64,000 nt of DNA from Promethearchaeota archaeon (GTDB taxonomy: Archaea; Asgardarchaeota; Lokiarchaeia; Sigyniarchaeales; SOKP01), in the NCBI GenBank assembly GCA_011364975.1, contig RDOE01000004.1:3316-67315 (forward strand). The letters are read 5' to 3'. The notes beneath the pieces are model-generated. The model saw only the letters and a list, made by a program, of their open reading frames with translations, was not told where the DNA came from and did not search any database. The position numbers and the translations under genes were made by a program. Positions 13,011 to 53,953 of this stretch are shown in pieces. Within the stretch, counting starts at the first letter, position 1; every line of letters begins with the position of its first letter.

Positions 13011-13024
13011 ATCAATTAAGAACC

Positions 13025-13819
13025 TTATTTACCATTTTTGAAGGATTTCCGTAATTTTTGCACAATTTCAATTACACTAGTATCTTGTTCGGTTAAACGT
13101 AGAAATACATCCTCTAAATTAGCTCCTAATTTGTTTGCCTGTTGTCTTAACTCTTCAATTGTACCTATGCCAACCATTTTACCTTTATTAATAATTCCAA
13201 TACGATTACATAATTGTTGAGCTATTTCCATGATATGAGTAGAAAAAAGAACAGAACCCCCATTTTCAATATGAATATCTAAGATCTCCTTTACCACTTT
13301 CACGGATTTAGCGTCTAAACCAGCCAAAGGTTCATCTAAAATAAGTAGATCAGGATCATGCAGTATTGCAGCTATTATTTGGACTTTCTGCTTATTTCCA
13401 TGAGATAAAGTGGCGATAAGTTGCTCATAATAATCACTTGCCCCTAAACTGTCCATATATTCCTGAGCCTTAGCAGACACCTCTTCCTCGTCAAGTTGGC
13501 GAATAGAGGCTATAAAGCTAAATAGATCTTTTGGAGTAAGAGATTTAAAAATTAAAGGTTCTTCTGAAACATATCCAACTCTCCTCTTAATTTCCACTTC
13601 TTCCTTTTCAGGGTTCATACCGATAACTGTAATCTCACCGTCATTTGGTTCAAGTAAGCCCAATAATAATTTAATAGTAGTTGTTTTTCCAGCACCATTA
13701 GGACCTAAAAGTCCAAAAACTTCGCCCTTTTTAACATCAAATGAGATACCATCGACCGCTTTTACATCTCCAAAATATTTCTTTAAATTTCGAACAGAAA
13801 CCATCATATTATTATCCAT
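13025..13819 (-). CDS. ABC transporter ATP-binding protein, copy 1.
   Basis: Walker A GPNGAGKTT, signature LSHGNKQK, Walker B LLILDEP, H-loop STHIM. Confidence 0.9.
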   Translation of the reverse strand: MDNNMMVSVRNLKKYFGDVKAVDGISFDVKKGEVFGLLGPNGAGKTTTIKLLLGLLEPNDGEITVIGMNPEKEEVEIKRRVGYVSEEPLIFKSLTPKDLFSFIASIRQLDEEEVSAKAQEYMDSLGASDYYEQLIATLSHGNKQKVQIIAAILHDPDLLILDEPLAGLDAKSVKVVKEILDIHIENGGSVLFSTHIMEIAQQLCNRIGIINKGKMVGIGTIEELRQQANKLGANLEDVFLRLTEQDTSVIEIVQKLRKSFKNGK

Positions 13820-13831
13820 TTTTTAACCTCA

Positions 13832-16501: not shown

Positions 16502-16502
16502 A

Positions 16503-17318
16503 TTATTCCATCTCTTTTATTTTTGATTTGTAAGATTTCCTTAATTTCTTTACAATCTCAACCACAGAATTATCTTGTTCTGTAAGCCTCAGAAATACCT
16601 CTTCTAACCGCGCTCCCATTTTATTCGTTTGTTGTTTTAATTCTTCAAATGTCCCAATTCCCACAATCTTTCCCTTATTGATAATTGCGATACGATCACA
16701 CAATTCTTCAGCCAATTCCATTATGTGGGTTGAAAATATCACAGAACCTCCTTTCTCTGTATGAATATCTAATATCTCTTTAACTACACGCACACTTTTT
16801 GCATCAAGCCCTGAAAGGGGCTCATCAAGAATTAGTAAATCGGGTTCGTGAATAATTGAGGCAATTATTTGCATTTTTTGTTTATTACCATGAGATAGGG
16901 TTGCGATTATTTGTTGATAATAATCAATTGCTTCCAAACTTTCTAAATATTCTTTTACTTTTTTAGTGGTTTCTTCTTCATCTAATTTTCTTATAGATGC
17001 AATAAAATTGAATAAATCTTTTGGTGTGAGTGATTTAAAAATTAAAGGTTCTTCTGATACGTATCCAACACGACTTTTAATTTTAACTTCATCTCGCTCA
17101 GGATTCATACCAAATATCTTAATCTCTCCACCTAAAGGTTCAAGTAATCCCAGAAGAAGTTTTAGAGTTGTAGTTTTTCCAGCACCATTAGGACCTAAAA
17201 GTCCAAATACTTCTCCTTTATAAACATTAAAACTGATGTCATTTACAGCTTTCACATCATCAAAGTATTTTTTCAAATTATGTACGTTAATAATTTCACT
17301 TTCTATCATACTCATCAT
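16503..17318 (-). CDS. ABC transporter ATP-binding protein, copy 2.
   Basis: GPNGAGKTT, LSHGNKQK, LLILDEP. By eye, most residues are identical to copy 1, for example the shared run VGYVSEEPLIFKSLTPKDLF. Confidence 0.9.
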   Translation of the reverse strand: MMSMIESEIINVHNLKKYFDDVKAVNDISFNVYKGEVFGLLGPNGAGKTTTLKLLLGLLEPLGGEIKIFGMNPERDEVKIKSRVGYVSEEPLIFKSLTPKDLFNFIASIRKLDEEETTKKVKEYLESLEAIDYYQQIIATLSHGNKQKMQIIASIIHEPDLLILDEPLSGLDAKSVRVVKEILDIHTEKGGSVIFSTHIMELAEELCDRIAIINKGKIVGIGTFEELKQQTNKMGARLEEVFLRLTEQDNSVVEIVKKLRKSYKSKIKEME

Positions 17319-22883: not shown

Positions 22884-23087
22884 GTGATTATTATAAGTTA
22901 TAGTAAACGATGCCCTTGTCCTAAAATGAATTGTCCTAATCATGGAGATTGTGAGGCATGCCAACAATATCATGAAAAGTCAAATGGTTTACCTTTTTGT
23001 AAAAGAAATCATGGATTCTTTACCAAGATTTTCTACAGGAGAAATTATAAGATGGTTCAGCAATTAATAATGGAGGGGATGCTATGA
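22884..23087 (+). CDS. Small Cys/His-rich protein, probably metal-binding, translationally coupled to a flavodoxin.
   Basis: 67 aa. Sequence CPCPKMNCPNHGDCEACQQYH...LPFC. Its TGA stop overlaps the ATG of the next gene (ATGA). Confidence 0.5.
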   Translation: MIIISYSKRCPCPKMNCPNHGDCEACQQYHEKSNGLPFCKRNHGFFTKIFYRRNYKMVQQLIMEGML

Positions 23088-26948: not shown

Positions 26949-28766
26949 TTATTTTTTATAAGTTCCAAATTGAGGAAAACTTCTTAGCTGAGCGGAATTA
27001 AAGACAGGTCCGTCTTTACATACAGAGATATTGTTATCTTCACCAATGCAACACGAACCACACAATCCTACTCCACATTTCATTTTGCGCTCTAAACTAG
27101 CTTGAACCTCAATCATTTTTGAATCCGCAATTTCAAGAACTCGCTTCATCATAATCTCTGGACCGCATGTGATTATTAAATCAATTTTCTCGCTATTAAT
27201 AATCTCTTCCATTGTATCTGTCACCAGGCATTTTTTTCCGATAGAGCCATCTTCTGTTGCACACATTGTGCTTGGAATTAAATCTATTAGCCGATCTGCA
27301 AAAATCAAAGATGCATCATCCTTTGCCCCGATTGTGACAAATATATTCTTTTTATTGCGCTTTAAGGGGTTTATCAAGGAGGTTAATCCAGCAATCCCCA
27401 TTCCTCCTCCAACGATTAAAATATTTTTAGCATCCTCGTAATTGAATGAAGTCCCGAAAGGACCTCGGATTCCAATTTTTTCCCCAATCCTCATTTCAAA
27501 TAACTTGGAAGTCCCTTCCCCAATCTTCTGAACGGTGATTTCAATTTGGTTTCCCTCTACATTAGAAATAGACATAGGTAAAAAATCGTAATCCGGTATC
27601 CATAATATAATAAACATTCCAGGACGATACGCTTTTGCAATTCTTTCATTTCTAAGTATAAAACTTTTAATTTCGGAAGAATAACTTATAATATCTTCAA
27701 TTTTTACGATATCTGTTTTGTTTCTAGTTATATCCAAAATTAATCCTTCTTTATCTTTTTCAAGTGGTTGGGTTTCTAAGATTCCTTTTCTTATAGCTAA
27801 ATCAAATAGCTGCTTACCTTTTTCAGTTCTTATTATTGCGGTATTCCATCCATTAGAACTGCCAAACTCGCCAACCGATATATCAGCAAATGAGGCGGTA
27901 TAATCTGAACAAGAAAAACACGCTTTTCTAATAGCCTTATCGTAAAGATAATTTAAGGGAATATTCACAGTATTCGTATTAGTCTTAATTAATAAATTGA
28001 AATTATCCTTATCAGTAATTATCGATTTGATTTCATTTTCTATGATTCCTTTTTCTTTATAAATCTGATTGAGTATCTGATTGTAATAAGTGCCTGTACA
28101 AAATGTTCCAATCGTTAAGCTCACTAAATCATATGCCTCAAAATCAAAGCCAGGATGATTTTGTAGTTTTCTTAAAGCCTGAATTTGACATGGAGTTCCA
28201 ACAATTGCAATATCACAATAGTTCTGATTGATTGCTTTTCCAATTAATGATAAAACAGGTCCCTGAGATGGTTTATAACCTACACCTTTCACCAAGTCTT
28301 TAGTTGATTCTGCAATAAATGGAGATGGTCTGAAATTTTCATCCTTATCTGTAATAATTGCTGCATCTATTATTTTAGCTTTCATTGCAGAATGTAATAA
28401 CCCAGTAAGAGGACCAGCTTCATTAGGAAGTTCTTCTCGGGCTTTATCGGTTAACTTAATTGATATTATCTCTAAATAATGACCAAGAATTTTATCTTGC
28501 TTTTTCTGGAAAACCCATTGATCTAAGAGACTTATAGGGAAATTTTCAATTTCTGTTTTAGGGCATAAATTATAACAAACACCAAAACCATCCCGACACG
28601 TATTGATGTCTTTACATGAACCATCTTCAATAGGAACTTCTTTTTCTCGATCAAATTTAATATTATCACAGAAAGCCCCACAAGCTCCACAATATACACA
28701 TTTTCCGCTATTAATAACCTCAGAAACAAGTTCGTTCCAACCTTTTTGCGCTTTATTTATAAACAT
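26949..28766 (-). CDS. Fusion protein. The N-terminal part is F420-hydrogenase/dehydrogenase beta (FrhB/FdhB)-like. The C-terminal part is a PyrK/SudB-like FAD/NAD(P)-binding domain with a 2Fe-2S cluster.
   Basis: 605 aa. N-terminal Cys cluster CVYCGACGAFC...CYNLCPK. Central motif GTPCQIQALRKL is FrhB-like. C-terminal ILIVGGGMGIAG (Rossmann) and MKCGVGLCGSCC (PyrK-type cluster). Starts 2 nt after the OFOR gamma gene. Confidence 0.7.
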   Translation of the reverse strand: MFINKAQKGWNELVSEVINSGKCVYCGACGAFCDNIKFDREKEVPIEDGSCKDINTCRDGFGVCYNLCPKTEIENFPISLLDQWVFQKKQDKILGHYLEIISIKLTDKAREELPNEAGPLTGLLHSAMKAKIIDAAIITDKDENFRPSPFIAESTKDLVKGVGYKPSQGPVLSLIGKAINQNYCDIAIVGTPCQIQALRKLQNHPGFDFEAYDLVSLTIGTFCTGTYYNQILNQIYKEKGIIENEIKSIITDKDNFNLLIKTNTNTVNIPLNYLYDKAIRKACFSCSDYTASFADISVGEFGSSNGWNTAIIRTEKGKQLFDLAIRKGILETQPLEKDKEGLILDITRNKTDIVKIEDIISYSSEIKSFILRNERIAKAYRPGMFIILWIPDYDFLPMSISNVEGNQIEITVQKIGEGTSKLFEMRIGEKIGIRGPFGTSFNYEDAKNILIVGGGMGIAGLTSLINPLKRNKKNIFVTIGAKDDASLIFADRLIDLIPSTMCATEDGSIGKKCLVTDTMEEIINSEKIDLIITCGPEIMMKRVLEIADSKMIEVQASLERKMKCGVGLCGSCCIGEDNNISVCKDGPVFNSAQLRSFPQFGTYKK

Positions 28767-28768
28767 AA

Positions 28769-29368
28769 TTAATTTTTTGCCCCCTTTAATTGTTTTAGAA
28801 ATTCATTTGCCTCCTGCTTGCCTAATTCAAAAGCTTCTAAATTTTTATCAAGAGTAGCAGCAGGCACAAATTTCTTGATAGTTTCAATAGCAGATTCTTC
28901 AGAAAATATACCTGAAAGGATGGTAAAAATCCCAAATAAAATGGAATTTCCAAAAACCATATTCCCAAATTTCTCCACTGCCATTTTTTGAACAGGAATG
29001 CCAATAGCTTTATTAATTCGCTTTACTGATCGAAATTTTTGGATTGTAGAGGTGTCCCATACTAAAAATCCAGAATTTTCATTTATCTTAAGATGATCTG
29101 ATTTAACATCACCTGCAGCCTCCTCTGAAAGTATAATAAGGAAGTCATAGGGTTGCATCGCTTTTGGATAATCTATTAATTTAACTTTTTTATCTAAATC
29201 TATAACTATTTCTGCCCAACATTTTCCTCCACGAGCGGATGAACTATAAGCCTCAGTTTGGGTAGCTGCTAGGTCTTCATATAATGAACTCGCAGTAATT
29301 ATCATTTTTGAAAGCGTTATTACCCCTTGTCCCCCAAATCCTACAATTCTAACTTCATACCTACTCAA
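28769..29368 (-). CDS. 2-oxoacid:ferredoxin oxidoreductase, gamma subunit.
   Basis: 199 aa. N-terminus VRIVGFGGQGVITLSKM is typical of the OFOR gamma domain. Confidence 0.85.
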   Translation of the reverse strand: MSRYEVRIVGFGGQGVITLSKMIITASSLYEDLAATQTEAYSSSARGGKCWAEIVIDLDKKVKLIDYPKAMQPYDFLIILSEEAAGDVKSDHLKINENSGFLVWDTSTIQKFRSVKRINKAIGIPVQKMAVEKFGNMVFGNSILFGIFTILSGIFSEESAIETIKKFVPAATLDKNLEAFELGKQEANEFLKQLKGAKN

Positions 29369-29370
29369 AT

Positions 29371-30288
29371 TTAATCTTCCTCCATAGCCCTTTTCTGAAT
29401 TTTAGCATATTCTTCTGAATATTCGGGTTTACTATTATCGTATCGAAATTCACCGATAATATATCGATTAAATAGTTCATCATCGTCCATAAATCTTGCT
29501 TGATTTTTTCTTACGCTATTTCGTTTAATCCAATCGATCATTTTTCCTCCTGTATCCATTTTACTACCTTGAATACCTAAATATTCAGCACCTAAACTAT
29601 CAAGATTTTTACTCCCAAAATATGTTAAACAAGGAGTAATGACTTCAATTATAGAAGTACCTTTATGGTTTAATGCTTTTCTAAAGTATTTCATAAGAGT
29701 TCGCGGATGTGCTACTGTTATTCTCGCAATATACGATGCACCTGCGGCTAAAGCTAATTTCACAGCATCACTTCTATTTTCGAAGGTTTTATAAGTGGAA
29801 GTAGTGCTTTTTGAGCCATACAACGTGGTTGGGGCACCTTGACCACCTGTCATACCATAGATACTGTTATTAAATATAAGGATAACACAATCAACATTTC
29901 TACGGCAAATATGAATGAAGTGATTTCCTCCAATTCCTAGACTATCCCCATCACCTGTGAATATGATAGGTTTTAATTTAGGGTTTGCTAATTTAATACC
30001 TGTAGCTATTGCTGGTGCTCGACCGTGTAATGCAAAAATTTTTTGAGAATTGTGATGTGCAAGTGTAACTAATTGGGTATAACAACCAATTCCTATAATT
30101 AATGGAAAGGATAAAGGATCTAATTTATCATCCTCAAATACCCGAGTAAATAGGTGACCAATAATACCATATCCACACCCCGCACAAAAAAGAGAATTAT
30201 AACTGCCAAAAAGAAATCCTCCAAACGAATGTTGGACATATGGATGATCTGGTTTCTCTGTGGGATATCTTGGACCTAAACCTGACAT
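29371..30288 (-). CDS. 2-oxoacid:ferredoxin oxidoreductase, beta (TPP-binding) subunit.
   Basis: 305 aa. Motifs CAGCGYGI and GDGDSLGIGGNHFIH (TPP motif). Confidence 0.85.
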   Translation of the reverse strand: MSGLGPRYPTEKPDHPYVQHSFGGFLFGSYNSLFCAGCGYGIIGHLFTRVFEDDKLDPLSFPLIIGIGCYTQLVTLAHHNSQKIFALHGRAPAIATGIKLANPKLKPIIFTGDGDSLGIGGNHFIHICRRNVDCVILIFNNSIYGMTGGQGAPTTLYGSKSTTSTYKTFENRSDAVKLALAAGASYIARITVAHPRTLMKYFRKALNHKGTSIIEVITPCLTYFGSKNLDSLGAEYLGIQGSKMDTGGKMIDWIKRNSVRKNQARFMDDDELFNRYIIGEFRYDNSKPEYSEEYAKIQKRAMEED

Positions 30289-31472
30289 TATTTTGATACC
30301 TCCTTAATAACATTTAAAATCTCTTCTGGATGATGAAACTCACCCACTTTGGGAATTTTAACTATTGGAATTTCAAGTTTCTTAACTCTTTCTACTTGCT
30401 CAGCAATAAATCCTGTATAATTTAATTCAGGTACAATGATTGCTTTGGCATTTTTTATAACCTCCCTAACTTTTTTATCAGGAAATGGCCATACTGTTAC
30501 TAACCTAAATATTCCAACTTTTATTCCCTGCTCCCTTGCAATATCAACAGCTCGATAACTAGCTCTCACGGGCAGCCCGTAAGCTATAATAATTATTTCT
30601 GCATCCTCTAATCTATATTCTTCAGTTATCGAAATTTTATCGATATTGGAAATTATTTTTTCAATTAACATTTCCATAAACTCTAATGAATTAGATGTTG
30701 GAAGTCCTGCATAATTGTGGGGTAGATGAAGAGATGTAGGTGGGAAATATTCCGTACCGGCTATTGGAGTCTTTGGGATAACATACTGACCAGTCATATC
30801 ATCTTTATAAGAAAAAAATTTTGTATAATCTTGAGGTAGTTCACGCTTAATCACTTTCTTAATTATTTCTTCTTTCGGAGGAATATAAACTGGTTCATGA
30901 AGATGTCCTAAATAAGCATCAGAGACAATAAATACAGGGCATCGATAAGTTTCCGCAAAATTGAAAGCTGTTATGGTTAATTCGAAAAGTTCTTGGCAGT
31001 TCATTGGTGCGAGTGCGATGACTTGAAACTCTCCATGACCTGCAAAACGTATTAATCCTAAATCGTTATGGTGAGGTGAAGTAACAGGTCCATGACTACC
31101 AGGGCCAACGCGTTGAACATCACACAAAACAAAAGGAATTTCAAGATTTGCCGCCATTGAGATCGTTTCAACCATTAAAGAAAGACCAGGACCCGAAGTT
31201 GCTGTCATTGCTTTTACACCGGCTAAGGATGCTCCAATAACAGCATTGATTGATGCTAATTCATCTTCCATTTGAATACAACTTCCACCAACTTCTGGTA
31301 ACCGTTTAGTGAGATGCTCTATAACCTCAGTTGAAGGTGTTATTGGATAACCTCCAAAAAAGTTCAAACCTGCAGCTAATGCACCTTCTGACATAGCTAC
31401 GTTCCCCATCATGACATATTTACCTTCTGGTAGATACCTTTTATTATTCTTTATACTCATCTTTTTTCTCAC
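30288..31472 (-). CDS. 2-oxoacid:ferredoxin oxidoreductase, alpha subunit.
   Basis: 394 aa. Motifs GNVAMSEGALAAG...GYPITPSTE and TATSGPGLSLM. Confidence 0.85.
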   Translation of the reverse strand: MRKKMSIKNNKRYLPEGKYVMMGNVAMSEGALAAGLNFFGGYPITPSTEVIEHLTKRLPEVGGSCIQMEDELASINAVIGASLAGVKAMTATSGPGLSLMVETISMAANLEIPFVLCDVQRVGPGSHGPVTSPHHNDLGLIRFAGHGEFQVIALAPMNCQELFELTITAFNFAETYRCPVFIVSDAYLGHLHEPVYIPPKEEIIKKVIKRELPQDYTKFFSYKDDMTGQYVIPKTPIAGTEYFPPTSLHLPHNYAGLPTSNSLEFMEMLIEKIISNIDKISITEEYRLEDAEIIIIAYGLPVRASYRAVDIAREQGIKVGIFRLVTVWPFPDKKVREVIKNAKAIIVPELNYTGFIAEQVERVKKLEIPIVKIPKVGEFHHPEEILNVIKEVSK

Positions 31473-31476
31473 CTTG

Positions 31477-31758
31477 TTATGTTTTAGCTTTTTTATTTTT
31501 TATTTCTTCCTTATTTAAGACGTAAATACACCAATCAGGACATCCAAATTCACATCTTCTACATGCAGTACAATAGTTAGCTTTTCCTTCTTTTACTCGA
31601 GGAATATAGGCAATTCGCATATTTAATTCATTACTGAGCTCTAAAATACCTGTGGGGCAAACGGAAATACACATTTGACATCCTCCACAGCGATCTTTAT
31701 TAAGAAATAATGTGAATTTCTTTTCTTCATTTTCCAATAATTTTGGAATTATCATCAA
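31477..31758 (-). CDS. 2-oxoacid:ferredoxin oxidoreductase, delta subunit (2x[4Fe-4S] ferredoxin).
   Basis: 93 aa. Motifs CGGCQMCISVCP and CTACRRCEFGCP. First gene of the delta-alpha-beta-gamma operon. Confidence 0.8.
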   Translation of the reverse strand: MMIIPKLLENEEKKFTLFLNKDRCGGCQMCISVCPTGILELSNELNMRIAYIPRVKEGKANYCTACRRCEFGCPDWCIYVLNKEEIKNKKAKT

Positions 31759-31895: not shown

Positions 31896-32636
31896 ATGAC
31901 GAAATTAATCTTCTTAGGGTGCTTATCAAATTCAAGATATAAGGATACCTGTACCAATGCTATAAAGATTATCAAAACCATAGATTCAGATTACAATGTA
32001 ATCGAAAATACTCCTTGCTGTGGAGCGTTGGCATATAACACTGCAAATGAAGAAGATTTAGAAACTCATGTAAAATTCGTGAATGATTGGTTTAAATTAA
32101 ACAATGTTTCTAAAATTGTCACCATTTGCGCCGGGTGTTATAATTACCTTACTAAGTATTACCCTTTAATATTAGAGTCGGAATTTAATATAGACGTAAA
32201 ACATCTATTACAATTTATTTCAATTCCAGAGAATTTAAAGAAACTTAACCTAAGTTATGGTGATAAAAAAATTAAGGTAAGTTATCACGACGCATGTCAT
32301 TTAAGAAATGCAGTAAAACCTATTATTGAAGAACCTAGAACTATTTTAAACTCAGTTGAAAATATTGAAGTATTTGAGATGGAAAATAATAAAGAAAGTA
32401 GTATTTGTTGTGGAGCAGGGGGTGGAGTATATTCTATTTTTAAAGAAAACTCAGATTATAATTCAAAGTTAATATTCGATCAATCTAAGAGAGCTAAAGC
32501 TCTATTAACGGCTTGCCCTTTCTGTTATACTGCTTTGAAAAGAGTAAAAGAGGAAAATGATCTCAAAAATCCTATTATTAAAATCGAAGACTTTATTGTA
32601 AAATTAATGGAAGGAGTTGATCCTATTAATGAGTGA
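31896..32636 (+). CDS. lutA: LutA/GlpC/HdrB-like (Fe-S) oxidoreductase with two CCG domains.
   Basis: 246 aa. Motifs PCCGA, CAGCY, HDACHL, ICCGAGGG and CPFCY. Stop is TGA at 32634..32636. Confidence 0.7.
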   Translation: MTKLIFLGCLSNSRYKDTCTNAIKIIKTIDSDYNVIENTPCCGALAYNTANEEDLETHVKFVNDWFKLNNVSKIVTICAGCYNYLTKYYPLILESEFNIDVKHLLQFISIPENLKKLNLSYGDKKIKVSYHDACHLRNAVKPIIEEPRTILNSVENIEVFEMENNKESSICCGAGGGVYSIFKENSDYNSKLIFDQSKRAKALLTACPFCYTALKRVKEENDLKNPIIKIEDFIVKLMEGVDPINE

Positions 32637-42237: not shown

Positions 42238-43158
42238 ATGAATTTTATTGAAGACTTAATACGATCAATACAACAGAAAAAATGTGTAGTTTGTATGGGG
42301 CTTGATCCGCGAATGGACAGCGATGCGGAAATACCCAAATATCTAGTCAAAGATTTTGAAGAACCAAATAACATAATACTAGAATTTAATAAAACATTAA
42401 TTGATGCAACTTATGATCTAATCCCTGTAATTAAACCCCAAATCGCTTTTTATGAAAAATATGAGGCTTTACCTGCTTTAAAAGAAACAATTAAATATGC
42501 TCATAAAAAGAATCTTTTGGTAATCCTAGATTCTAAACGAAACGATATTGGCTCAACTTCTGAAGCTTATGCATTTTCAATGTTTAAAGGCTACGGAGCA
42601 GATGCTTCTACTCTTAATGCCTACCTTGGAATCGATGGGATCAAACCATTTTTAAAATACAAAGAAAAAGGTGTCTTTATTCTTGTAAAAACCTCCAATC
42701 CGAGTAGTAAAGAATTTCAAAACTTATTTAGTGTAAAGATTGAAAATATACCCGATAATACGACCGAAATAAAGGTTGATTCGATTACTTTAGATCGAAA
42801 TTATATTCATATGGCAAAATTAGTCCAAGAATGGGGCACTTCTTTGAAAAAGTTTATGAATTTTCATAATTTAGGGGTCGTTGTTGGAGCTACCTTCCCT
42901 GAAGAATTAAAAGCAATAAGAAAAATAATACATAACTCCATTATTCTAATGCCAGGTTTTGGAATGCAGGGGGCTAAATCAGAAGATGTGAAATATGGTT
43001 TTTATAGTGATGGATTGGGTGGAATTGTCAATTCATCTCGTGGAATAATTTATGCTTATAGTAAAAATAAAAATTATCCTCCTGAAAAGTTTGGTGAAGC
43101 TGCAAGAGAAGAAGTTATCCAGATGAAAGAAAATATTAATAAAGCTATTGGTTTCTGA
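42238..43158 (+). CDS. pyrF: Orotidine 5'-phosphate decarboxylase, type 2 (long form).
   Basis: 306 aa. Motifs VCMGLDPR, KPQIAFYE, LDSKRNDIGSTS, MPGFGMQGA. Confidence 0.85.
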   Translation: MNFIEDLIRSIQQKKCVVCMGLDPRMDSDAEIPKYLVKDFEEPNNIILEFNKTLIDATYDLIPVIKPQIAFYEKYEALPALKETIKYAHKKNLLVILDSKRNDIGSTSEAYAFSMFKGYGADASTLNAYLGIDGIKPFLKYKEKGVFILVKTSNPSSKEFQNLFSVKIENIPDNTTEIKVDSITLDRNYIHMAKLVQEWGTSLKKFMNFHNLGVVVGATFPEELKAIRKIIHNSIILMPGFGMQGAKSEDVKYGFYSDGLGGIVNSSRGIIYAYSKNKNYPPEKFGEAAREEVIQMKENINKAIGF

Positions 43159-43168
43159 TTGAATAATG

Positions 43169-43585
43169 CTAAAGTCTTGTTAATTGAGAAATTAAAGGGC
43201 CTAATCCAGACATTACAAAAACCATTGGAATAATAATGATAATCACGACTACAAGAGACCGCTTAAGACCGATCCTGTGAATTATATTCACTACATTTAT
43301 ATCAACTAAAGCACAAATAATTACAACTGGAATAATTGCTCCAGGATTTCCATTAAATGCTCCAATCATCCCTAATAAAAAAAGTGGTGAGCCAATCGCA
43401 AAAATGACTCCGAATTGAATAAAAAAACTAGCAGCAACCCATTTCATCTTTTTCCAGCGTTCAGCTTTAGTAATAACAAGACCAAGTTTCAACAATATTA
43501 AATCAGCAACCGTTAAGCCAAGTATTAAAAATATTGAACTCATGTCACCAGACATTGGACCAAATTGCAGCAGTTGAAAAAACAT
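43169..43585 (-). CDS. Small polytopic membrane protein, unknown function.
   Basis: 138 aa with four hydrophobic helices. A TTTTTATATAAA box lies about 25-35 nt upstream at 43609..43620. Confidence 0.5.
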   Translation of the reverse strand: MFFQLLQFGPMSGDMSSIFLILGLTVADLILLKLGLVITKAERWKKMKWVAASFFIQFGVIFAIGSPLFLLGMIGAFNGNPGAIIPVVIICALVDINVVNIIHRIGLKRSLVVVIIIIIPMVFVMSGLGPLISQLTRL

Positions 43586-43801
43586 AATCTAAAGTAATAA
43601 CCGTGGAATTTTTATATAAATTTTGGGAGTTTTGCCTTTTTTAATAAAGATGCTTATTAAACTATCATGAAACTTTTTTGATAAAAAATTAATTATCTTA
43701 ATCAGAGATTTTAAATTAAAATAAAATATTAAAATTCATAACATAAATCATTAAAATTTCTTGGAGGAATTAACAAAAAAGAACAAAAGGAATGATATGC
43801 A

Positions 43802-45766
43802 ATGGTAGAAACTGAAAATACAGATGAGGAACCAAGAATCTTCGTGGCTATATGCCAATGAGGAATTAATGTTGCTGAAATAATTGAAACTCATTCACTG
43901 GCTGAATTTACCAAAACGTTACCAAATGTCGTAGATGCTCTTGATTATATAAGCCTTTGTACAGAACCTGGTGCTGAATTTATCAAAGAAAAAATGATTG
44001 AAAGCAACGCAAATAGGTTAGTAGTTGCCTCATGTACTCCAAAAACTCATGAACCTGTTTTTAAAAGCGTTCTTGAATCTATGGGATTAGATTCATCCTA
44101 TCTTGAATTTGTAAACATTCGTGAGCATGCAAGTTTTGTCCATCGCCAAGATAAACCAGGAGCTCAAATGACAGCAGAGGATGCTATTCGTTCTGGCGTG
44201 GCAAGAGCTGCAGTTTTAGAAAAGATTTTAGTAAAAGAAGTCGATATCACAAAAAAGGCGTTAATAATCGGTGGAGGTGTAGCAGGCTTAGTTGCGGGAA
44301 TTGATTTAGCTGAGGAAGGATTTGAAGTACATTTAGTTGAAAAATCTCCAACTATTGGTGGTAAAATGGCTATGCTAGATAGAACTTTTCCTACTGATGA
44401 TTGTAGTATATGAATATTGGGACCCGTGATGTTACAAGCAGCAAGAACTCCCGGATTCAATATTTATACTTATAGCGAACTAGAGGATGTAAGTGGTTTT
44501 GTAGGTAATTTTAAAGCAAAGATCCGTAAAAGGGCGAGATATGTAACTAATGATTGTAATGGTTGTGGTTCATGCTTTGAAGTATGTCCTGCCTATGGAT
44601 ATGATGAATTTAATGAAGGAATGAACCCACGAAAAGCGATTTATGTATCATTTGCTCAAGCAGTTCCGTCAATGGCACAAATCGATATGAATAGATGTAT
44701 TAAATGTGGTATGTGCAAAGAAGTATGTGAAGTTAAGGCTGTTGATTTTGATCAAAAGGATGAAATCATAGAACTTGAAGTTGGATCTATTATTGTTGCT
44801 ACTGGTTGGGATGAATATGAACCTGATAAAGGCTATTTAGGGTATAAGGTATACCCAAATGTTATAACTCAAATGAAGCTTGAACGAATGCTTGCTCCTA
44901 ATGGTCCTACTGTTGGGCATTTAGTCCGTCCTTCAGATGGAAAAAAGCCAGAAAGAATTTTATTCATCCAATGTGTAGGTTCAAGGGACTTAAACAAACA
45001 AACGTATTGCAGTGCGGGAGTATGTTGCATGATTTCAATAAAAAATACAAAACTCATTAAACAGCATTATCCCGATATTGATATCACTGTTGCTTATATG
45101 GATATAAGAGCTGCTGGAAAAGATTATGAAGAGTATTTTACTGCATCACGAGCGGAAGGAATTAGATATGTAAGAACCAATGTTTCAAAAATCTATCAGG
45201 ATCCTGAAACAAAAAACCTTAAAGTAATTCTTCAAAATACTTTAAGTAATACAGGACTAATAGAATTTGAATACGATCTAGTAGTTTTATCGTGTGCTAT
45301 GGTACCTGCTATTGGTGTTGATAAAATTGGTAAAATACTAAAACTTGAGACTTCTCAGGATGGCTTCTTTAAAGAATTTCATTCGCGGTTAAACCCAATT
45401 GACACAAAAATCCCTGGAATTGTTTTAGCTGGTGTCGCTCAAGGTCCAAAATCAATAGCAGAGTCAATTTCACAAGGAAGAGCTGCTGCATCTTCTTTAG
45501 CTCGATTAATGAGTAAAGAAAAATACAGAATTTTATTAATCAGAGCTACTGTAGATAAGGATAAATGCGCTAAATGTGGACTTTGTGAACTAAATTGTCC
45601 ATATAATGCGATAAAATTAGAACCGGATGGAGCCGAGGTCAATGAAATTTTATGTAGAGGATGTGGTACGTGTCTAGCTAATTGTCCTTCTGAAGCAATC
45701 ACTCTCAGGTATTATCGTGAACCTCAATATGAAAAACAAATCGATGCTATACTAGAGGAAATATAG
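43802..45766 (+). CDS. hdrA: Heterodisulfide reductase subunit A (HdrA) homolog, a selenoprotein with two in-frame UGA (Sec) codons.
   Basis: One reading frame runs from ATG 43802 to TAG 45766 (654 aa). It is interrupted only by TGA at 43859..43861 (VAICQ-U-GINV, the CxCGxNI motif) and at 44411..44413 (FPTDDCSI-U-ILGP, the DCSxCIL motif). Other motifs: IIGGGVAGL (FAD) and two C-terminal ferredoxin motifs, CAKCGLCELNCP and CRGCGTCLANCP. The ORF track shows only fragments 43994..44413 and 44417..45766. Confidence 0.85.
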
Positions 45767-45779
45767 GGAGGTGGATTAA

Positions 45780-46247
45780 ATGGCAACTCAGGATAGAATC
45801 AAGATTTTAGCGTTCATGTGTTGGAAATGAGGATATGGAGCAGGAGATATGGCTGGAACAATACGCGCTCAATATCCTGCTACTATTCGCCCTATTAGAA
45901 TAAATTGTACCGGAAGAGTAACTCCTAGTCTTATGATGCGAGCAATTGGTAAAGGCGCAGATGGAATCATAGTTGCGGGATGATATGAAGGAGAATGCGA
46001 TTATGAAACAGGAAATTTAGTTGCGGCCAAAAATGTTAAATATACAAAAGAGATATTAAAAATTGCCGGTGTTTCACCAGAAAGAGTACAAATGTTCCAT
46101 TGTAGTGCCGCAGAAGGCCAGAAATTTCAAGAAGAGATGACTAGAGTTTCAAAAATTATTGAGGAATTAGGCAATAACCCTATTAAAGAATCGATCAAAC
46201 TTGAAAAAGAAAAGGAAACTAATACCGTAGAAAAATCAACAAATTAA
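45780..46247 (+). CDS. vhuD: MvhD/VhuD-type hydrogenase delta subunit homolog, a selenoprotein with two in-frame UGA (Sec) codons.
   Basis: Absent from the ORF track. ATG 45780 is preceded by GGGAGGTGG. The frame is open to TAA 46245..46247 (155 aa) except for TGA at 45828..45830 (AFMCWK-U-GYGAGDMAG) and 45981..45983 (IIVAG-U-YEGECDY). Both sit at the conserved MvhD Cys positions (FxCxWCxYxGAD and GCxxGxCHY). Confidence 0.8.
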
Positions 46248-46316
46248 ACCGAAAGAATGAATTTTACGAAAAAAAATTAGTCGTAAAATGACGAACCATT
46301 ATGCCATGGTTTCGGT
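46248..46316 (+). promoter_or_regulatory. Candidate SECIS element in the 3' UTR of hdrA-vhuD.
   Basis: Outer stem is ACCGAAA (46248..46254) with TTTCGGT (46310..46316). The internal hairpin ATTTTACGA (46261..46269) with TCGTAAAAT (46281..46289) forms a 9-bp stem capped by the A-rich loop AAAAAAATTAG. Below the stem, 5' TGA (46258..46260) faces 3' GAC (46290..46292), allowing tandem sheared G-A/A-G pairs (G46259-A46291, A46260-G46290). Confidence 0.5.
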
Positions 46317-46331
46317 ATTTTAGAATTTTTA

Positions 46332-46501: not shown

Positions 46502-47197
46502 ATGGGAGAAACAACACCAAGTAAACTTAAGTTTTCTGTTACAGCCCCCTCTGGAGCAACAAAGGTAGTTGCACTTATGGCTGCTCTTGTATTAATTCGC
46601 GAAGGAATATGGCTTTTTTGGAATACTGCAGATATAAATATCTTTTTTGGAATTATGGAAATAATCCTAGCAGGAATTTTAATTATTGTTCTAAATATAG
46701 TTGATTTTGGAGTGCCTTTCTTTAAGAAACTCTTTTTATGGTGGATAATACTAATTTTAGGAATTTTAGTATTGATGTTCGAAATATTCGCTTCTGGATA
46801 CGACATTTTAACAGCAGCGTCTACAGGATTCTTACTAGGCGGTCTATTAGTAGTAATTGCAGCTATTCTTGAACTTGTTGCGAGTAAACAGAAAATGAAA
46901 GCTTCTCAGATTGTTGCTCTGTTTGGAGCGGCATATACGATCTTTGAGGTTATTTTATTGTTTTTAAATCCATCAACACAAACTATCTATCATGGAATTC
47001 TCGGAATAATATTTGTTGCATTATTACTGATTTCAATGCAAAAAAAGATAGATTTAAAAATCAGATATGAGTGGTGGGTTGTTTTAATTATCGGTTTTGT
47101 ACTTTATTCCTGGGTAACTTCAATACCATCAGTAACCTTCGGAACTGGTGGGACTATAGTATTGATCTCCTTTATATTGATGTTATTAGCCCTTTAA
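46502..47197 (+). CDS. Polytopic membrane protein, unknown function.
   Basis: 231 aa with about 6-7 hydrophobic helices. The antisense ORF 46462..46806 is judged a shadow. Confidence 0.55.
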   Translation: MGETTPSKLKFSVTAPSGATKVVALMAALVLIREGIWLFWNTADINIFFGIMEIILAGILIIVLNIVDFGVPFFKKLFLWWIILILGILVLMFEIFASGYDILTAASTGFLLGGLLVVIAAILELVASKQKMKASQIVALFGAAYTIFEVILLFLNPSTQTIYHGILGIIFVALLLISMQKKIDLKIRYEWWVVLIIGFVLYSWVTSIPSVTFGTGGTIVLISFILMLLAL

Positions 47198-47316
47198 AAT
47201 TTTACTTTTTTTTCTTTTTCTTTTAGTTTAACATATTTTTTGTTTTAAAAAGAAAAATTATTAACTTACTTTTCAATTGTAAAATTAAATAGTTATGATA
47301 CGTACGGTGAATTTAA

Positions 47317-48624
47317 ATGGGAAAAGATCCTAAAACAACCGCTGAAAATCAATTAAAAAAAGCAGAGCAACTATATAAAGCACGGCAATTTAAAAAAGCG
47401 GGCAAGAATTTTCATTCAGCGGGTATTTCTTTTCTTAAACTAGAAGAATATGAAATAGCTAAAAATTGTTTTCTTGAGGCGATAAAACCATTTTTAGAAT
47501 TAGACAAATACGATACGATTTTAGAACTAATACGAAAGGCAAGCGAAGCTTGTTTGCAAAATAATCAATATTCAGAAGCGTTCCGACTTTATAAAGATAC
47601 AATGAACCACATCCCTAAATTAAAGAGTGAAACAGATAAAAATGATAATTATGTTCTCTTTTCTGTTTTATCCTATCTATGTTTACATGCCAATGGTGCT
47701 CCTGAGGAAGGATTAGATTATATTAAAAGAAATAGAAATAAGATAGACAATGACTTCTTCAAAGAAAATAATTTGATTCAATTAATTTCAGAGTTAACAC
47801 TTTCCATCAGAGATAAAACGGAGAAATATCTTGAAAACATTCAAAATAATCTTAATCAATTTAAATTAAGAGATCCGGAAGTAAAATTGTTAAAAGACGT
47901 TATACTGTTGACGAAATTTCAGCTTTTAATTGAAAGTTCTTTAATCTTAGATAAGGACACTTATACTACCAATGACATTATTAATTTAAATGTGGAGTTA
48001 GACACCAATCCTCTCATTCAAGTGCTTAATAACTCATTTTTTAAATTTAAAATCAATAGTTTTCAAATTATTAAACTAATTGTAAGTCTTTCGGATAATT
48101 TAACCACCAATAAAAAGCCAGACTTACCGTTTTCATTAGATATTGGTAGTAAAATTACTTTACCTTTTACATTAAAACCTCACTTTCAATTGGATAACCC
48201 AAAGATAGGCCCTATAAACTTAACGTTTGAATTGAATAATCTACTAATTTTTAATTATGATACCTCCGTTATAATCCCAAATTTAATTTCACCCCCTGCC
48301 TCCTTAGAGGCTTCAATAAAGAATTTACGCCCACCACTTTTAGATCAATCATTTCCATTAGAAATTTTAATTGAAAATCGAAGCCAAGGAGAAGCGCTAG
48401 ATGTAAATATTGATGTTGAATTTCCTGAAGAGCTTAAACTTATGAGAGGCACCACAAATAAGCAAATATATTCATTAAGAAGTAATGAAAATTTAAAATG
48501 GGAGGTCAACCTAAAACCCCTTGATGTAGGAGATTTCATCATTAAAATAAGTATAAAATTTAAAGATCCTGATGATAATCAAATCAACGATGTAAAAGAA
48601 TTCCCCTTTTCAATAAAAATGTAA
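47317..48624 (+). CDS. Two-domain protein: an N-terminal SNAP/TPR-like alpha-solenoid and a C-terminal Ig-like beta-sandwich (CARDB/ASH-like).
   Basis: 435 aa. N-terminal helical-hairpin pattern QLKKAEQLYKARQFKKAGKNFHSAGISFLKLEEYEIAKNCFLEAIKPFLEL. C-terminal strand pattern PLEILIENRSQGEALDVNIDVEFPEELKL...WEVNLKPLDVGDFIIKISIKFKD. Confidence 0.5.
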   Translation: MGKDPKTTAENQLKKAEQLYKARQFKKAGKNFHSAGISFLKLEEYEIAKNCFLEAIKPFLELDKYDTILELIRKASEACLQNNQYSEAFRLYKDTMNHIPKLKSETDKNDNYVLFSVLSYLCLHANGAPEEGLDYIKRNRNKIDNDFFKENNLIQLISELTLSIRDKTEKYLENIQNNLNQFKLRDPEVKLLKDVILLTKFQLLIESSLILDKDTYTTNDIINLNVELDTNPLIQVLNNSFFKFKINSFQIIKLIVSLSDNLTTNKKPDLPFSLDIGSKITLPFTLKPHFQLDNPKIGPINLTFELNNLLIFNYDTSVIIPNLISPPASLEASIKNLRPPLLDQSFPLEILIENRSQGEALDVNIDVEFPEELKLMRGTTNKQIYSLRSNENLKWEVNLKPLDVGDFIIKISIKFKDPDDNQINDVKEFPFSIKM

Positions 48625-51008: not shown

Positions 51009-51842
51009 GTGGAATTAATCATGGATGAAAACCGATATACTAGACTCAAAGCGCTAAAAGATTTTGGATATGAAATTAACTGGGATGATTTAAAAAGAAA
51101 AAGCGTTGCTATTATTGGTATAGGAGGTTTAGGAACTGTAAGTTCAGAAATGGTGACACGGTGTGGAGTGGGAAAATTAGCTTTATTTGACTTTGATACA
51201 GTTGAACCAGTTAATCTTAATAGAAGTATGTTTAAACCGAAGCATATTGGAAAACCAAAGGCAGAGATAGCCGCAAAAATATTAAATGAAATCAATCCTG
51301 ATGTTAAAATCTATTACTTTATTAAGGACATTATGGATATTGATTTTGAATTTACATTTGAAAAAGAACTTTCAAAGATGGACATAATTCTTAACGGACT
51401 TGATAATATTTCTGCTAGAGAATACCTTAATAGTAAATGTGTAAAGTTGAGAATTCCATATATTGATGCTGGAGCTTCTCGCAGCGGATTATCGGGTTAT
51501 ATTCACCCCATTATTCCTTTCAAAACAGCATGTGCTAAATGTATTAAAAGTATAGCAATAAATCTTCCCGAAGAGAGAGGAGAGCCTTGTGTAGCATCTC
51601 TACCAACAACTATGGCGATACTAGCAAGTATTCAAGTGCAAGAAATGTTAAAACTTCTTCTAAAATTTGGTGAAATGATTGATTATGTTATGTATCATAT
51701 GATTACTGGACAATTCCTTCATTACAATACAAAGAAAGATAATAATTGTCCTATCTGTGGTATTAGAAAAAAAGACGGTAAAAGAATAAAGTCAAAGGTT
51801 ACAGATAAAGATATAGAGGATATAATTGAAAAAATAGAATAA
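51009..51842 (+). CDS. E1-like ubiquitin-activating enzyme (ThiF/MoeB/Uba family).
   Basis: 277 aa. Motifs IIGIGGLGTVSSEMVTRCGVGKLALFDFDTVEPVNLNRSMF, CAKC...CPIC zinc pairs, and PCVASLPTT (Cys loop). An alternative ATG start at 51021 has better spacing to an AGTGGA box. Confidence 0.85.
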   Translation: MELIMDENRYTRLKALKDFGYEINWDDLKRKSVAIIGIGGLGTVSSEMVTRCGVGKLALFDFDTVEPVNLNRSMFKPKHIGKPKAEIAAKILNEINPDVKIYYFIKDIMDIDFEFTFEKELSKMDIILNGLDNISAREYLNSKCVKLRIPYIDAGASRSGLSGYIHPIIPFKTACAKCIKSIAINLPEERGEPCVASLPTTMAILASIQVQEMLKLLLKFGEMIDYVMYHMITGQFLHYNTKKDNNCPICGIRKKDGKRIKSKVTDKDIEDIIEKIE

Positions 51843-51974
51843 ATTAGGTGGTTTATCATCAAAAGGATCCAAATACCCCAAATTTTCATTGAGGTCATTA
51901 AGAATCAAGCTATCCTTAGTTACGAAGAGATATATGGATGGCTAATTGGATATTCTGAGTCAAATGTAACTAAA

Positions 51975-53051
51975 GTGTTAGCAATTTATGAATGTACACA
52001 ATTTATAGAACAAACGGTTATCCATGCAATGCCAGATATATTAGAATTTCAAGAAATTAGTTCAGTTCTTCCTCAAGGTATTGGACCAATAGGTATTTAT
52101 CATTCTCATCCAAGCCTAAGTGATATTTTTCATTCTCATACTGATGATTCAACTCTGATAAGCTTAACAAATCAATTTCAAGATTGCATCTCAATAATTA
52201 CTAATGGACAGAACATTAAATTCTACCAAATGGGGAAAAATTATAAAACTAAAGAAATAGAAGTTGAGTATATTGAACCGGAAGTACCAAAATTTATGTT
52301 AGTTTCAATTAATGAAAAATTTGAAATTTTCATTGATCCCGAATTTTTAACTCAAGAAAAAAGTTTAAGTAAATTAAATATACAAATTCAAAATTTAATC
52401 ATAAATTATTTTCAAAATAACTGGAACGAATTAGAATTTACACATAATAACTCAATAATAGGAAATAAAGATAAATTGCATAAATATTTAGTAGAGAAGT
52501 TAAATACGGAACCATTACGGCTTAAAATTCCATCTAATTTAAAGCAGCGTCATAGAAATTTATTAAAAGTTATCCAGAAAGGCAATAAGGATGATACTGT
52601 AAGTTACGAAGCTTTTGAATTTATTATTAATACAAAATTTCCACTCTATAATATTCGAAAGTATGATAATTTTGATACACTTAGTCAGAAAGTAAAGGAT
52701 GAATTTTTAGGAAATAATCTCATTCAAAAATTGCATAATTTAATCATTGATAAAGAAAACCTTAGAATTATTATACCTAATGACTATTATTTGAAGTTTT
52801 TTGGATTCTATATAAGAACTTTGAACTTCAATAAAAAAAACTTAAATGAAATCTTAATTAAGAATGAACCGTATAAGTTTGAATTGAAAATAATTCGCTT
52901 TTTGAAATCCTTCATAAATTTGGAAGTTTCAATTAAGTTTAAGAACTATTTATATGAGCTTTTGAATAATTTGGAAGATTTTGCTGAACATTTTACATGG
53001 AAAGAGAAATTAAGTGAAGATTTAAAACAACTCAAAATTAACTTAAAGTAG
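51975..53051 (+). CDS. JAMM/MPN+ metalloprotease (Rpn11-like deubiquitinase candidate) with a roughly 240-aa helical C-terminal extension. The true start is probably upstream, near 51855.
   Basis: JAMM motif GIYHSHPSLSDIFHSHTDDS. The matching catalytic Glu motif (EEIYGWLIGY) is encoded at 51924..51953, upstream of GTG 51975, in the same open frame. Confidence 0.75.
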   Translation: MLAIYECTQFIEQTVIHAMPDILEFQEISSVLPQGIGPIGIYHSHPSLSDIFHSHTDDSTLISLTNQFQDCISIITNGQNIKFYQMGKNYKTKEIEVEYIEPEVPKFMLVSINEKFEIFIDPEFLTQEKSLSKLNIQIQNLIINYFQNNWNELEFTHNNSIIGNKDKLHKYLVEKLNTEPLRLKIPSNLKQRHRNLLKVIQKGNKDDTVSYEAFEFIINTKFPLYNIRKYDNFDTLSQKVKDEFLGNNLIQKLHNLIIDKENLRIIIPNDYYLKFFGFYIRTLNFNKKNLNEILIKNEPYKFELKIIRFLKSFINLEVSIKFKNYLYELLNNLEDFAEHFTWKEKLSEDLKQLKINLK

Positions 53052-53147
53052 TAATGAAATTATTAATATTGAAAACCAAAATTAAAAAAAAATAAAAGGA
53101 ACATTTTTTTTAAATTTAATAAGATAAAAATCAGAGGTTAAAATATA

Positions 53148-53414
53148 ATGGCATCTGAATTAAATACCATCTATTTTGTTAATAAATTTGGAACAGAAAA
53201 AAAGCAAGTGCCATTCCCTGTTTCAGCAAACATTAAATTAATGGATGTTGTTCCAGAAATCTCAAAAAAGTTTGGAATCTCTTCTCAAAATGTTTGTATT
53301 GCAAATATGGGAGGACAAGTACTAACTAATACAGACCTATTAAGTCCAATTAAAGAAATTGTTGAAAAGTTCGGAAATACTTTTGATATTATTGATAGAG
53401 GGATTGTTGGGTGA
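53148..53414 (+). CDS. Ubiquitin-like beta-grasp modifier.
   Basis: 88 aa, small and operon-embedded between JAMM and E2. C-terminus is ...DIIDRGIVG directly before the stop. The TGA stop overlaps the GTG start of the E2-like gene (GTGA). Confidence 0.7.
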   Translation: MASELNTIYFVNKFGTEKKQVPFPVSANIKLMDVVPEISKKFGISSQNVCIANMGGQVLTNTDLLSPIKEIVEKFGNTFDIIDRGIVG

Positions 53415-53953
53415 CCAGTTCAGATAAAAGATGGCAAAGGTCTATAGTAGATGAATTAATTCAAGAATTTTCTAACAATTGGGTTTCCATAGGACCTAAA
53501 AATCCTGCATGGAAAGATCGGGTAAAGTTAGAGATCGAAAAAATTATGCAGTATATTAATTTCTTAAAGAATACTAAAAATAGACCTTGGTTTAAGTTAT
53601 TTCCAGAACGAAATCCTCGTTATAATTATTTAATTTGGGCAGGAAATTTGGTTGTGCCTGAACGATCTGAAATAAATTTCGATATCAAAGTATTACTTAC
53701 TTCTGAATATCCAAAAGTATGTCCAAGATGTTTCGCAGAAGAATCTATTTTAAATTACTGTGGTAAAATATTTTTGAAGAATATATGGGAACAGGATAGT
53801 AAAAAGTACGTAATGATATGTCATGAACATATGTCTGATACTAATGCATGGAATGAGCGTCTTGGTATTGTTCATTTCTTTATACGCCAGGTATGGGTAT
53901 GGTGGGCTGCTCAACAAAATGTAATTATCCAAGAATATGATAAAAAACATTAA
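53411..53953 (+). CDS. E2-like ubiquitin-conjugating enzyme (UBC fold).
   Basis: 180 aa. FDIKVLLTSEYPKVCPRCFAEE resembles the UBC YP-x-x-PP-x-x-F segment. NYCGKIFLKNIW resembles the catalytic G-x-ICL-x-x-L-x-x-x-W segment. Confidence 0.65.
   Translation: MTSSDKRWQRSIVDELIQEFSNNWVSIGPKNPAWKDRVKLEIEKIMQYINFLKNTKNRPWFKLFPERNPRYNYLIWAGNLVVPERSEINFDIKVLLTSEYPKVCPRCFAEESILNYCGKIFLKNIWEQDSKKYVMICHEHMSDTNAWNERLGIVHFFIRQVWVWWAAQQNVIIQEYDKKH

Follow-up and report, generated by a model that had tools for sequence, protein, structure and literature searches.

The 64,000-nucleotide stretch analysed here (hereafter the window) is part of contig RDOE01000004.1 of assembly GCA_011364975.1, from a Promethearchaeota archaeon. 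On its forward strand it carries two adjacent genes, hdrA and vhuD, each with a reading frame that is interrupted by two in-frame TGA codons. hdrA (43802-45766, 654 codons) begins with an ATG at 43802, ends with a TAG at 45764-45766 and encodes an electron-bifurcating flavoprotein subunit of the HdrA type. It is followed, after a spacer of 13 nt, by vhuD (also mvhD; FlpD family), which encodes a [2Fe-2S] electron-transfer subunit (45780-46247, 155 codons; ATG at 45780, TAA at 46245-46247). A Shine-Dalgarno-like box, GGGAGGTGG (45766-45774), was read from the sequence between the two genes; it overlaps the last base of the hdrA stop codon and presumably functions as its name implies.

On direct reading, the only internal stops in the hdrA frame were observed to be the TGA codons 20 (43859-43861) and 204 (44411-44413), and those in the vhuD frame were the TGA codons 17 (45828-45830) and 68 (45981-45983). 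With U written for TGA, the peptide contexts are ICQ-U-GINV and DDCSI-U-ILGP in HdrA, and MCWK-U-GYGAGD and VAG-U-YEGECDY in VhuD. Both frames, all four TGA coordinates and all four peptide contexts had been given in an earlier annotation of this DNA made from its letters alone (the original prediction), and each proved exact on re-reading. It had also pointed out that the open reading frame (ORF) track splits hdrA and loses both its N-terminus and vhuD. The mechanical ORF list agrees with this, breaking hdrA into 43994-44413 and 44417-45766 and holding no vhuD ORF of at least 80 aa.

Protein families and conservation of the in-frame TGA codons

Orthologues of the pair were collected by scanning one genome per GTDB species, which gave 80 loci, all from Asgard metagenome-assembled genomes and mostly labelled Promethearchaeota; each locus was translated with TGA as U and then aligned. 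The HdrA proteins of these loci are 75-89% identical to that of the window, the nearest species representative being 88-89% identical. For the homology searches, cysteine was written at the TGA positions of HdrA and VhuD. Against solved structures, HdrA gave its best match, from end to end, with 5odc_A (E 9e-202, residues 9-651); the matches to four other solved HdrA sequences had E-values no higher than 1e-163. Pfam identified two Fer4 dicluster regions and a FAD Rossmann domain, and the order of the domains, namely N-terminal Fe-S, TrxR-like FAD, inserted ferredoxin and C-terminal ferredoxin, is that of the solved HdrA proteins. The cluster cysteines tested were the N-terminal CxC...C...C, the CxxC/U near residue 200, the inserted 2 x CxxCxxCxxxC, the Cx11Cx4CC and the C-terminal 2 x CxxCxxCxxxC. 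All of these columns are occupied by Cys (or U) in the window protein and in 78-81 of the 81 aligned sequences, and the N-terminal four are Cys in five of five solved HdrA sequences.

VhuD matched PF02662 (FlpD) over profile positions 1-123 of 123 with an E-value of 2.5e-42 and 144.2 bits (cut-off 22.3), and six solved MvhD/VhuD sequences with E-values of 1e-30 to 3e-35 (9sfi_K, E 3e-35; 5odc_D, E 3e-31). The conserved Cys/Sec set of the family (Sec, selenocysteine), C14, C/U17, C43, C/U68 and C73, is present, with Sec at both positions where Methanococcales VhuD has it, and the pattern CUCUCC was seen in 75 of 81 sequences. Genes for the HdrA partners HdrB and HdrC and for hydrogenases were searched for with Pfam scans and none was found in the 64-kb window; the remark in the original prediction that no hydrogenase subunit genes lie nearby thus extends to the entire window. 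The partners may be encoded elsewhere in the genome, a matter which concerns the complex and not the family membership of HdrA.

The four TGA codons were next placed against residues of known proteins, most usefully those of 9sfi, a Methanococcus maripaludis structure in which a printed X stands for selenocysteine. HdrA codon 204, in a C-x-x-U motif, aligns with the X of 9sfi_A ('ddcamXilap') and with Cys197 of 5odc_A, and is therefore the canonical HdrA Sec position (Cys/Sec197 in methanogen numbering). VhuD codon 17 aligns with the X of 9sfi_K in 'vCyqXgygaaD' and with a Cys of 9sw2_D, and VhuD codon 68 with the X of 9sfi_K in 'vagXkpneC' and the Cys of 9sw2_D in 'vtgChhgdC'. HdrA codon 20 occupies the second position of the N-terminal C-x-C/U-G-x-N motif, and corresponds to the second Cys of 'vChCGvNi', a Cys that the five distinct solved HdrA sequences all share. 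The original prediction had proposed that every TGA lies at a conserved Cys column and had suggested the alignment that would show it. The alignment bears the proposal out, three of the four sites being Sec in 9sfi and the fourth being Cys in five of five solved HdrA proteins.

The same codons are conserved throughout the orthologues. TGA was found at HdrA codon 20 in 79 of 79 aligned sequences that cover the position, at HdrA codon 204 in 81 of 81, at VhuD codon 17 in 80 of 81 and at VhuD codon 68 in 80 of 80. Substitution by TAA or TAG was never seen at any of these sites across the roughly 80 loci, and the Fe-S cysteine columns are intact on both sides of each TGA. Some relatives carry additional Sec codons in HdrA, at position 53 (29 of 80 sequences) and position 78 (three of 81), so that the patterns at positions 20/53/78/204 are UCCU in 48 sequences, UUCU in 28, UCUU in two and UUUU in one. 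UCCU, the pattern of the window, is both the commonest (48/81) and the least Sec-dense form of HdrA in the clade. The suggestion in the original prediction that the module is unusually dense in Sec cannot be sustained, as two Sec in HdrA is the norm of this clade and its lowest-Sec variant, and multi-Sec HdrA of Lokiarchaeota had already been described (PMC4989117). The four UGAs are almost certainly read as selenocysteine, with the help of the RNA hairpin described below.

TGA also serves as an ordinary stop codon in this DNA. Among the 44 non-overlapping ORFs of at least 150 aa in the window, 34 end in TAA, six in TAG and four in TGA, and in this same set no internal in-frame TGA was found in the long conserved frames outside hdrA-vhuD. 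The gene upstream of hdrA, an OMP-decarboxylase-like gene (42238-43158), ends in TGA; its orthologues in the related loci (n=66) end in TAA (35), TAG (19) or TGA (12), and 58 of the 66 end at the same residue. The stop codon of hdrA itself, TAG in the window, is only TAA or TAG in all the loci listed, in keeping with the published model of the Loki pairs. That TGA is a true stop elsewhere had been noted in the original prediction, and the instances checked, at 31896-32636, 53412-53414 and 22884-23087, uphold it.

The SECIS element downstream of vhuD

A complete selenocysteine insertion sequence (SECIS) of the eukaryote-like, type I form known as lokiSECIS was identified in the 3' untranslated region (UTR) of vhuD by pattern matching, a covariance model and covariation. 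The element (46249-46315) begins 2 nt past the vhuD stop codon and is closed by an invariant lower helix, CCGA (46249-46252) with TCGG (46312-46315). Its core (46257-46291), which begins 9 nt past the vhuD TAA, consists of AUGA (46257-46260), AUUUUACGA, AAAAAAAUUAG, UCGUAAAAU and GA (46290-46291). AUUUUACGA (46261-46269) and UCGUAAAAU (46281-46289) form an upper helix of 9 bp in which all nine pairs are Watson-Crick, and AAAAAAAUUAG is the apical loop of 11 nt (46270-46280), with seven leading As and AG at its end. A mini-hairpin of 5 bp (46295-46299 with 46306-46310) lies on the 3' side, between the GA and the lower helix. By the published definition, a lokiSECIS has a stem of 9 bp flanked directly by AUGA on the 5' side and GA on the 3' side, and a loop of 11 nt that is mostly A over its first five bases and closes with AG (PMC4989117). 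The element of the window agrees with this definition feature by feature, and is the sole perfect match to the pattern in the 64 kb.

With the strict pattern, 62 of the 80 loci were seen to have a SECIS directly after vhuD. In an ungapped alignment of 60 relatives there are 12 invariant columns, and the window element matches all 12. Covariation over these 60 sequences, which had been preselected by a pattern demanding at least seven pairs, was 0.641 as compared with 0.265 in shuffles; none of 500 shuffles reached the observed value, registers slid along the helix gave 0.08-0.22, and all nine pairs of the upper helix showed double-sided changes. An independent check came from a covariance model built from the 60, under which 14 loci passed over by the pattern scored 45-64 bits. 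Wherever a contig runs on past vhuD, the locus has a SECIS there. In the window the model gave one match, at 46251-46297, with 67 bits and an E-value of 2e-13, the next best score being 11 bits (128 kb, both strands). The mini-hairpin is 91% paired in the orthologues and one of its pairs clearly covaries (AU 38, UA 17, UG 8, CG 3); a pattern extended to include the lower helix and the mini-hairpin fits 72 of 81 sequences and occurs once in the window. Folding of the 3' UTR alone by minimum free energy gave a modest z-score of -1.84, which is unconvincing without comparative data.

No second lokiSECIS was found in hdrA, the spacer or the 5' region by an unfiltered covariance search, the best score in 43500-46250 being about 9.5 bits. 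The distances from the UGAs to the SECIS core are 276 and 429 nt for the two codons of VhuD, 1846 nt for HdrA codon 204 and 2398 nt for HdrA codon 20. A SECIS of the methanogen type (a GC-rich 10-bp stem, a GAA / A bulge and a 3-bp GC stem) was likewise not found in the operon: two matches with seven of ten pairs and AT-containing short stems were seen there, against a background of 44 in the window. A further match to the lokiSECIS pattern at 60571 (12-nt loop, eight pairs, AA) lies within the ORF of a leucine-rich repeat (LRR) protein, draws no score from the covariance model and was set aside as due to chance. Downstream of the element, T4 (46318-46321) and T5 (46326-46330) tracts were read from the sequence. 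Archaeal RNA polymerase terminates at oligo-dT tracts, and 46318-46330 is a probable transcription termination signal.

We considered what else might account for in-frame TGAs at this locus. Decaying pseudogenes, or assembly and sequencing errors, would lead gene callers to split or miss hdrA and vhuD, as is indeed the case, and that is the whole of what speaks for them. The same four TGAs are nevertheless met again in some 80 genomes that were assembled independently and whose proteins are 75-89% identical, the frames being intact and the Fe-S cysteines preserved, and at three of the sites Sec is known from experiment in Methanococcus; recurrence in intact frames excludes both pseudogenes and sequencing errors, to which we attach a negligible probability. 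UGA might instead be a sense codon throughout the genome (Trp, Gly or Cys), in which case no Sec-specific mechanism would be needed. The rarity of TGA as a stop (4 of 44 long ORFs) fits such a reassignment, and is also expected at 31% GC. However, TGA ends conserved genes exactly where orthologues have TAA or TAG, other long conserved ORFs of the window are free of internal TGA, and internal TGAs occur only at Cys columns of two selenoprotein families that are accompanied by a SECIS. Since TGA swaps with TAA and TAG at a true terminus and never at the four recoded sites, a reassigned code is excluded, and we give it practically no credence.

Two further possibilities accept that the UGAs are recoded. 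The codons might be decoded mostly as cysteine, or might mostly terminate translation when selenium is scarce, making the operon a selenium-gated switch. The efficiency of UGA decoding depends on selenium supply, and an unrecoded UGA at codon 20 would abort HdrA almost at once; Methanococcus, moreover, replaces Vhu by its Cys isoform Vhc under selenium limitation (PMC13518236). Yet no Cys-encoding variant of the four codons occurs in 80 orthologues, which argues that Sec itself is selected, there is no Cys paralogue in the window, and the sequence offers nothing by which such a switch could be told from normal Sec insertion. We consider this very unlikely. It is a little less probable still that each cistron has a recoding signal of its own, in the form of a second or a methanogen-type SECIS, and that the downstream element serves vhuD only. 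Action over 2.4 kb, across a stop and a restart, would be unusual, and the hdrA of Methanococcales has its own SECIS (PMC4989117). Against this stand the score of about 9.5 bits upstream as compared with 67 for the element itself, the background level of the GAA_A pattern, the lack of any Rfam match, and the report of the single-SECIS layout for all Loki hdrA-vhuD pairs (PMC4989117).

It is thus highly probable that hdrA-vhuD is a bicistronic operon of a Lokiarchaeota-type (Promethearchaeota) Asgard archaeon that encodes two selenoproteins with four Sec residues and one shared lokiSECIS. Several observations weigh against this conclusion. Action of the 3' SECIS on the upstream cistron would follow only from the absence of a second element; no lokiSECIS-binding protein is known, and Loki yielded no SBP2 (PMC4989117); genes for tRNA-Sec, EFSec, PSTK, SepSecS and SelD are absent from the 64-kb window; and for no Asgard archaeon has Sec incorporation been demonstrated by experiment (PMC9622424). 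In addition, the Rfam SECIS models miss the element, both at the gathering score over the whole window and at E <=10 on 3.1 kb and on 121 nt, these searches returning just chance fragments of snoRNA, miRNA and rRNA. RF00031 shares the core motifs of the lokiSECIS and yet misses it, since the helix falls short of the length that the model calls for. The original prediction had argued for Sec recoding in place of decay or a reassigned code. The Cys columns, the roughly 80 orthologues, the normal TGA stops and the SECIS all support that argument; the SECIS, the decisive cis element, is what it had overlooked. As standard gene callers truncate or miss hdrA and vhuD, the annotation of the contig needs mending; it should join the fragments and mark the four Sec codons and the one SECIS.

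Proposed decoding and selenocysteine chemistry

We propose that hdrA and vhuD would be co-transcribed on a single mRNA that ends in the SECIS. The kink-turn-type SECIS would recruit an archaeal Sec-specific elongation factor, the presumed reading factor, together with Sec-tRNA(Sec), and would act wherever a ribosome pauses at one of the four UGAs, also across the cistron boundary. The true stops would be spared because hdrA ends in UAG and vhuD in UAA. As the window is without Sec machinery, the presence of this machinery in the genome rests on the literature of the clade, where the Sec trait has been found in 85.9% of Lokiarchaeia/Helarchaeales genomes (PMC11227280).

The chemistry can be approached through the solved methanogen enzymes. 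Sec204 would sit at the place of Cys/Sec197 beside the FAD, and might act as a ligand of the partner's cluster or in a selenylsulfide relay. In the enzyme of M. thermolithotrophicus/M. wolfeii, Cys197 serves as a ligand to the partner HdrA's N-terminal [4Fe-4S] cluster (PMC9012536). For Sec197 of M. maripaludis, a Cys-Sec selenylsulfide was modelled and an electron relay from FAD to the cluster was proposed (PMC13518236). HdrA's N-terminal Fe-S domain has four invariant cysteines, and Sec20, which equals Cys13 in M. thermolithotrophicus numbering, takes the place of one of them; across about 80 species of the clade it does not vary, whereas every solved methanogen enzyme has Cys there. The redox functions of the individual Sec residues, and partners encoded elsewhere, are likewise parts of the proposed model. 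The Sec sites of the clade, 20, 53, 78 and 204, belong to the set made up of the four N-terminal-domain cysteines and the Cys197 equivalent, which reaches that cluster from the partner subunit. Together these HdrA sites make up the environment of a single [4Fe-4S] cluster.

A bolder idea, which we hold to be doubtful, is that in Asgard HdrA selenolates would supply two to four ligands of a [4Fe-4S] cluster, or a Sec-Sec/Sec-Cys relay would operate at that cluster, either of which would tune the low-potential branch of bifurcation, and that the lower helix and mini-hairpin of the SECIS would be an adaptation for long-range recoding of two cistrons. The HdrA Sec sites were said in 2016 not to be cluster ligands (PMC4989117), in a paper written before the HdrA structure, and the statement may deserve revisiting given the later HdrA structures. 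The N-terminal Fe-S domain of HdrA (residues 1-135, 43802-44206), for which a Pfam search gave no match, aligns weakly with VhuD (hhalign P 0.002, probability 13%; BLASTP E 0.23), and the alignment puts C18/U20/C53/C78 of HdrA opposite C14/U17/C43/U68 of VhuD. This is suggestive only of a relationship between the two domains in which their Sec sites would be equivalent (Sec20 to Sec17, position 78 to Sec68).

Neighbouring genes and known systems

The window has a GC content of 31% and a gene content typical of the Loki type, including two aldehyde:ferredoxin oxidoreductases, a 2-oxoacid:ferredoxin oxidoreductase cluster, LutAB-like genes, an FrhB-fusion protein and the LRR protein; tRNA genes were not found in it. 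The order of the genes around the operon (42238-43585 and 46502-48624) is conserved: an OMP-decarboxylase/HUMPS-like gene, a divergent gene for a 138-aa membrane protein, hdrA-vhuD, (a 231-aa membrane protein) and a 435-aa TPR-like protein. This synteny is seen in about 70 of the 80 related loci and most likely reflects close relatedness. The neighbours were considered as possible Hdr partners and rejected, having no redox motifs or Pfam domains that link them to Hdr.

Several other features of the window were recorded. The FrhB-fusion gene (26949-28766, reverse strand) encodes a 605-aa fusion of FrhB/FdhB N- and C-terminal domains with a DHODB-type Fe-S domain and adjoins the four-gene 2-oxoacid:ferredoxin oxidoreductase cluster (28769-31758); its product may represent a further flavin/Fe-S module for electron transfer in this part of the window. 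On the forward strand, a 67-aa Cys-rich ORF (CPCPKMNCPNHGDCEACQQYHE, 22884-23087), which is unannotated, ends in a TGA overlapping, as ATGA, the start codon of a downstream flavodoxin gene. A eukaryote-like cluster for a ubiquitin-type modifier, typical of Asgard archaea, occupies 51009-53953 on the same strand and comprises a ThiF-family E1 (51009-51842), an unassigned 358-aa ORF, an 88-aa ubiquitin-like ORF (53148-53414) whose TGA stop overlaps the next start, and a UFC1-like E2 (53411-53953; Pfam E 6.7e-6, 26.3 bits, cut-off 25). The reverse strand carries a giant ORF of 1921 aa (29-5794) with no Pfam match at E 1e-5 or better. Also on the reverse strand, at 10398-17318, is a tandem-duplicated unit of two genes, in which the gene for a protein of 870-889 aa, with an Rce1-like CAAX protease domain at its C terminus, is followed by that for an ABC-transporter ATPase; the copies are at 10398-13010 with 13025-13819, and at 13832-16501 with 16503-17318.

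The arrangement of hdrA and vhuD seen here is not new, and the locus is an ordinary member of an already described Asgard system. The original prediction had mentioned that Sec usage was reported in Lokiarchaeota by Mariotti et al. (2016, Mol Biol Evol), and that paper describes this very arrangement (PMC4989117). There, Loki HdrA has up to four Sec at five positions and VhuD has two; hdrA is always directly upstream of vhuD and never ends in UGA; and a single lokiSECIS after vhuD was inferred to act on as many as six UGAs across some 2 kb. The clade positions 20, 53, 78 and 204, together with the C-terminal Sec of HdrA.2 in the same paper, may make up its five positions. Huang et al. (2024, ISME J) surveyed 227 Asgard genomes and listed 1439 selenoprotein sequences; the most abundant families were HdrA and FrhD/VhuD, always adjacent and with one eSECIS-like element in common (PMC11227280), and a 2026 review repeats the picture of a SECIS shared by HdrA and VhuD. 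Among Asgard selenoprotein genes this pair is the most abundant, and the present locus adds one more instance with the published architecture.

With the published Loki pairs, the operon of the window shares the adjacency and strand of the genes, the very short spacer, a multi-Sec HdrA that includes a site at about residue 200, a two-Sec VhuD, the single SECIS after vhuD and a non-UGA stop of hdrA. Nothing of substance differs: the window copy has a two-Sec HdrA (20 and 204), where relatives have three or four, and its orthologue group also shows the invariant lower helix and the 3' mini-hairpin.

The HdrA and VhuD of Methanococcales and Methanopyrus (Wilting et al. 1997; PDB 9sfi, PMC13518236) are orthologous to those of the window. 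Sec204 equals Sec197, the VhuD sites Sec17 and Sec68 are the same, and the adjacency of hdrA and vhuD is common to both. The differences are that Methanococcales HdrA has one Sec, with Cys at position 20, whereas the window HdrA has two; that the Methanococcales SECIS is of the GC-rich GAA_A type, which is absent from the window operon; and that the Methanococcales genes sit with vhuAGU hydrogenase genes, while the window is without hydrogenase or hdrBC. The window host, unlike the Methanococcales, is not a methanogen.

The likeness to the eukaryotic SECIS (RF00031, SECIS_1) and to the multi-UGA mRNAs of the SelenoP type lies in the place of the element in the 3' UTR, the AUGA...GA kink-turn core, the unpaired As of the loop and the distant action on several UGAs. 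By comparison, the lokiSECIS has a shorter upper helix (9 bp) and, unlike the eukaryotic elements, works for two cistrons on a polycistronic mRNA. To our knowledge, hdrA-vhuD is the only case of one SECIS serving two cistrons, and the Asgard Sec system to which it belongs has been proposed as an evolutionary bridge from archaeal to eukaryotic Sec decoding.

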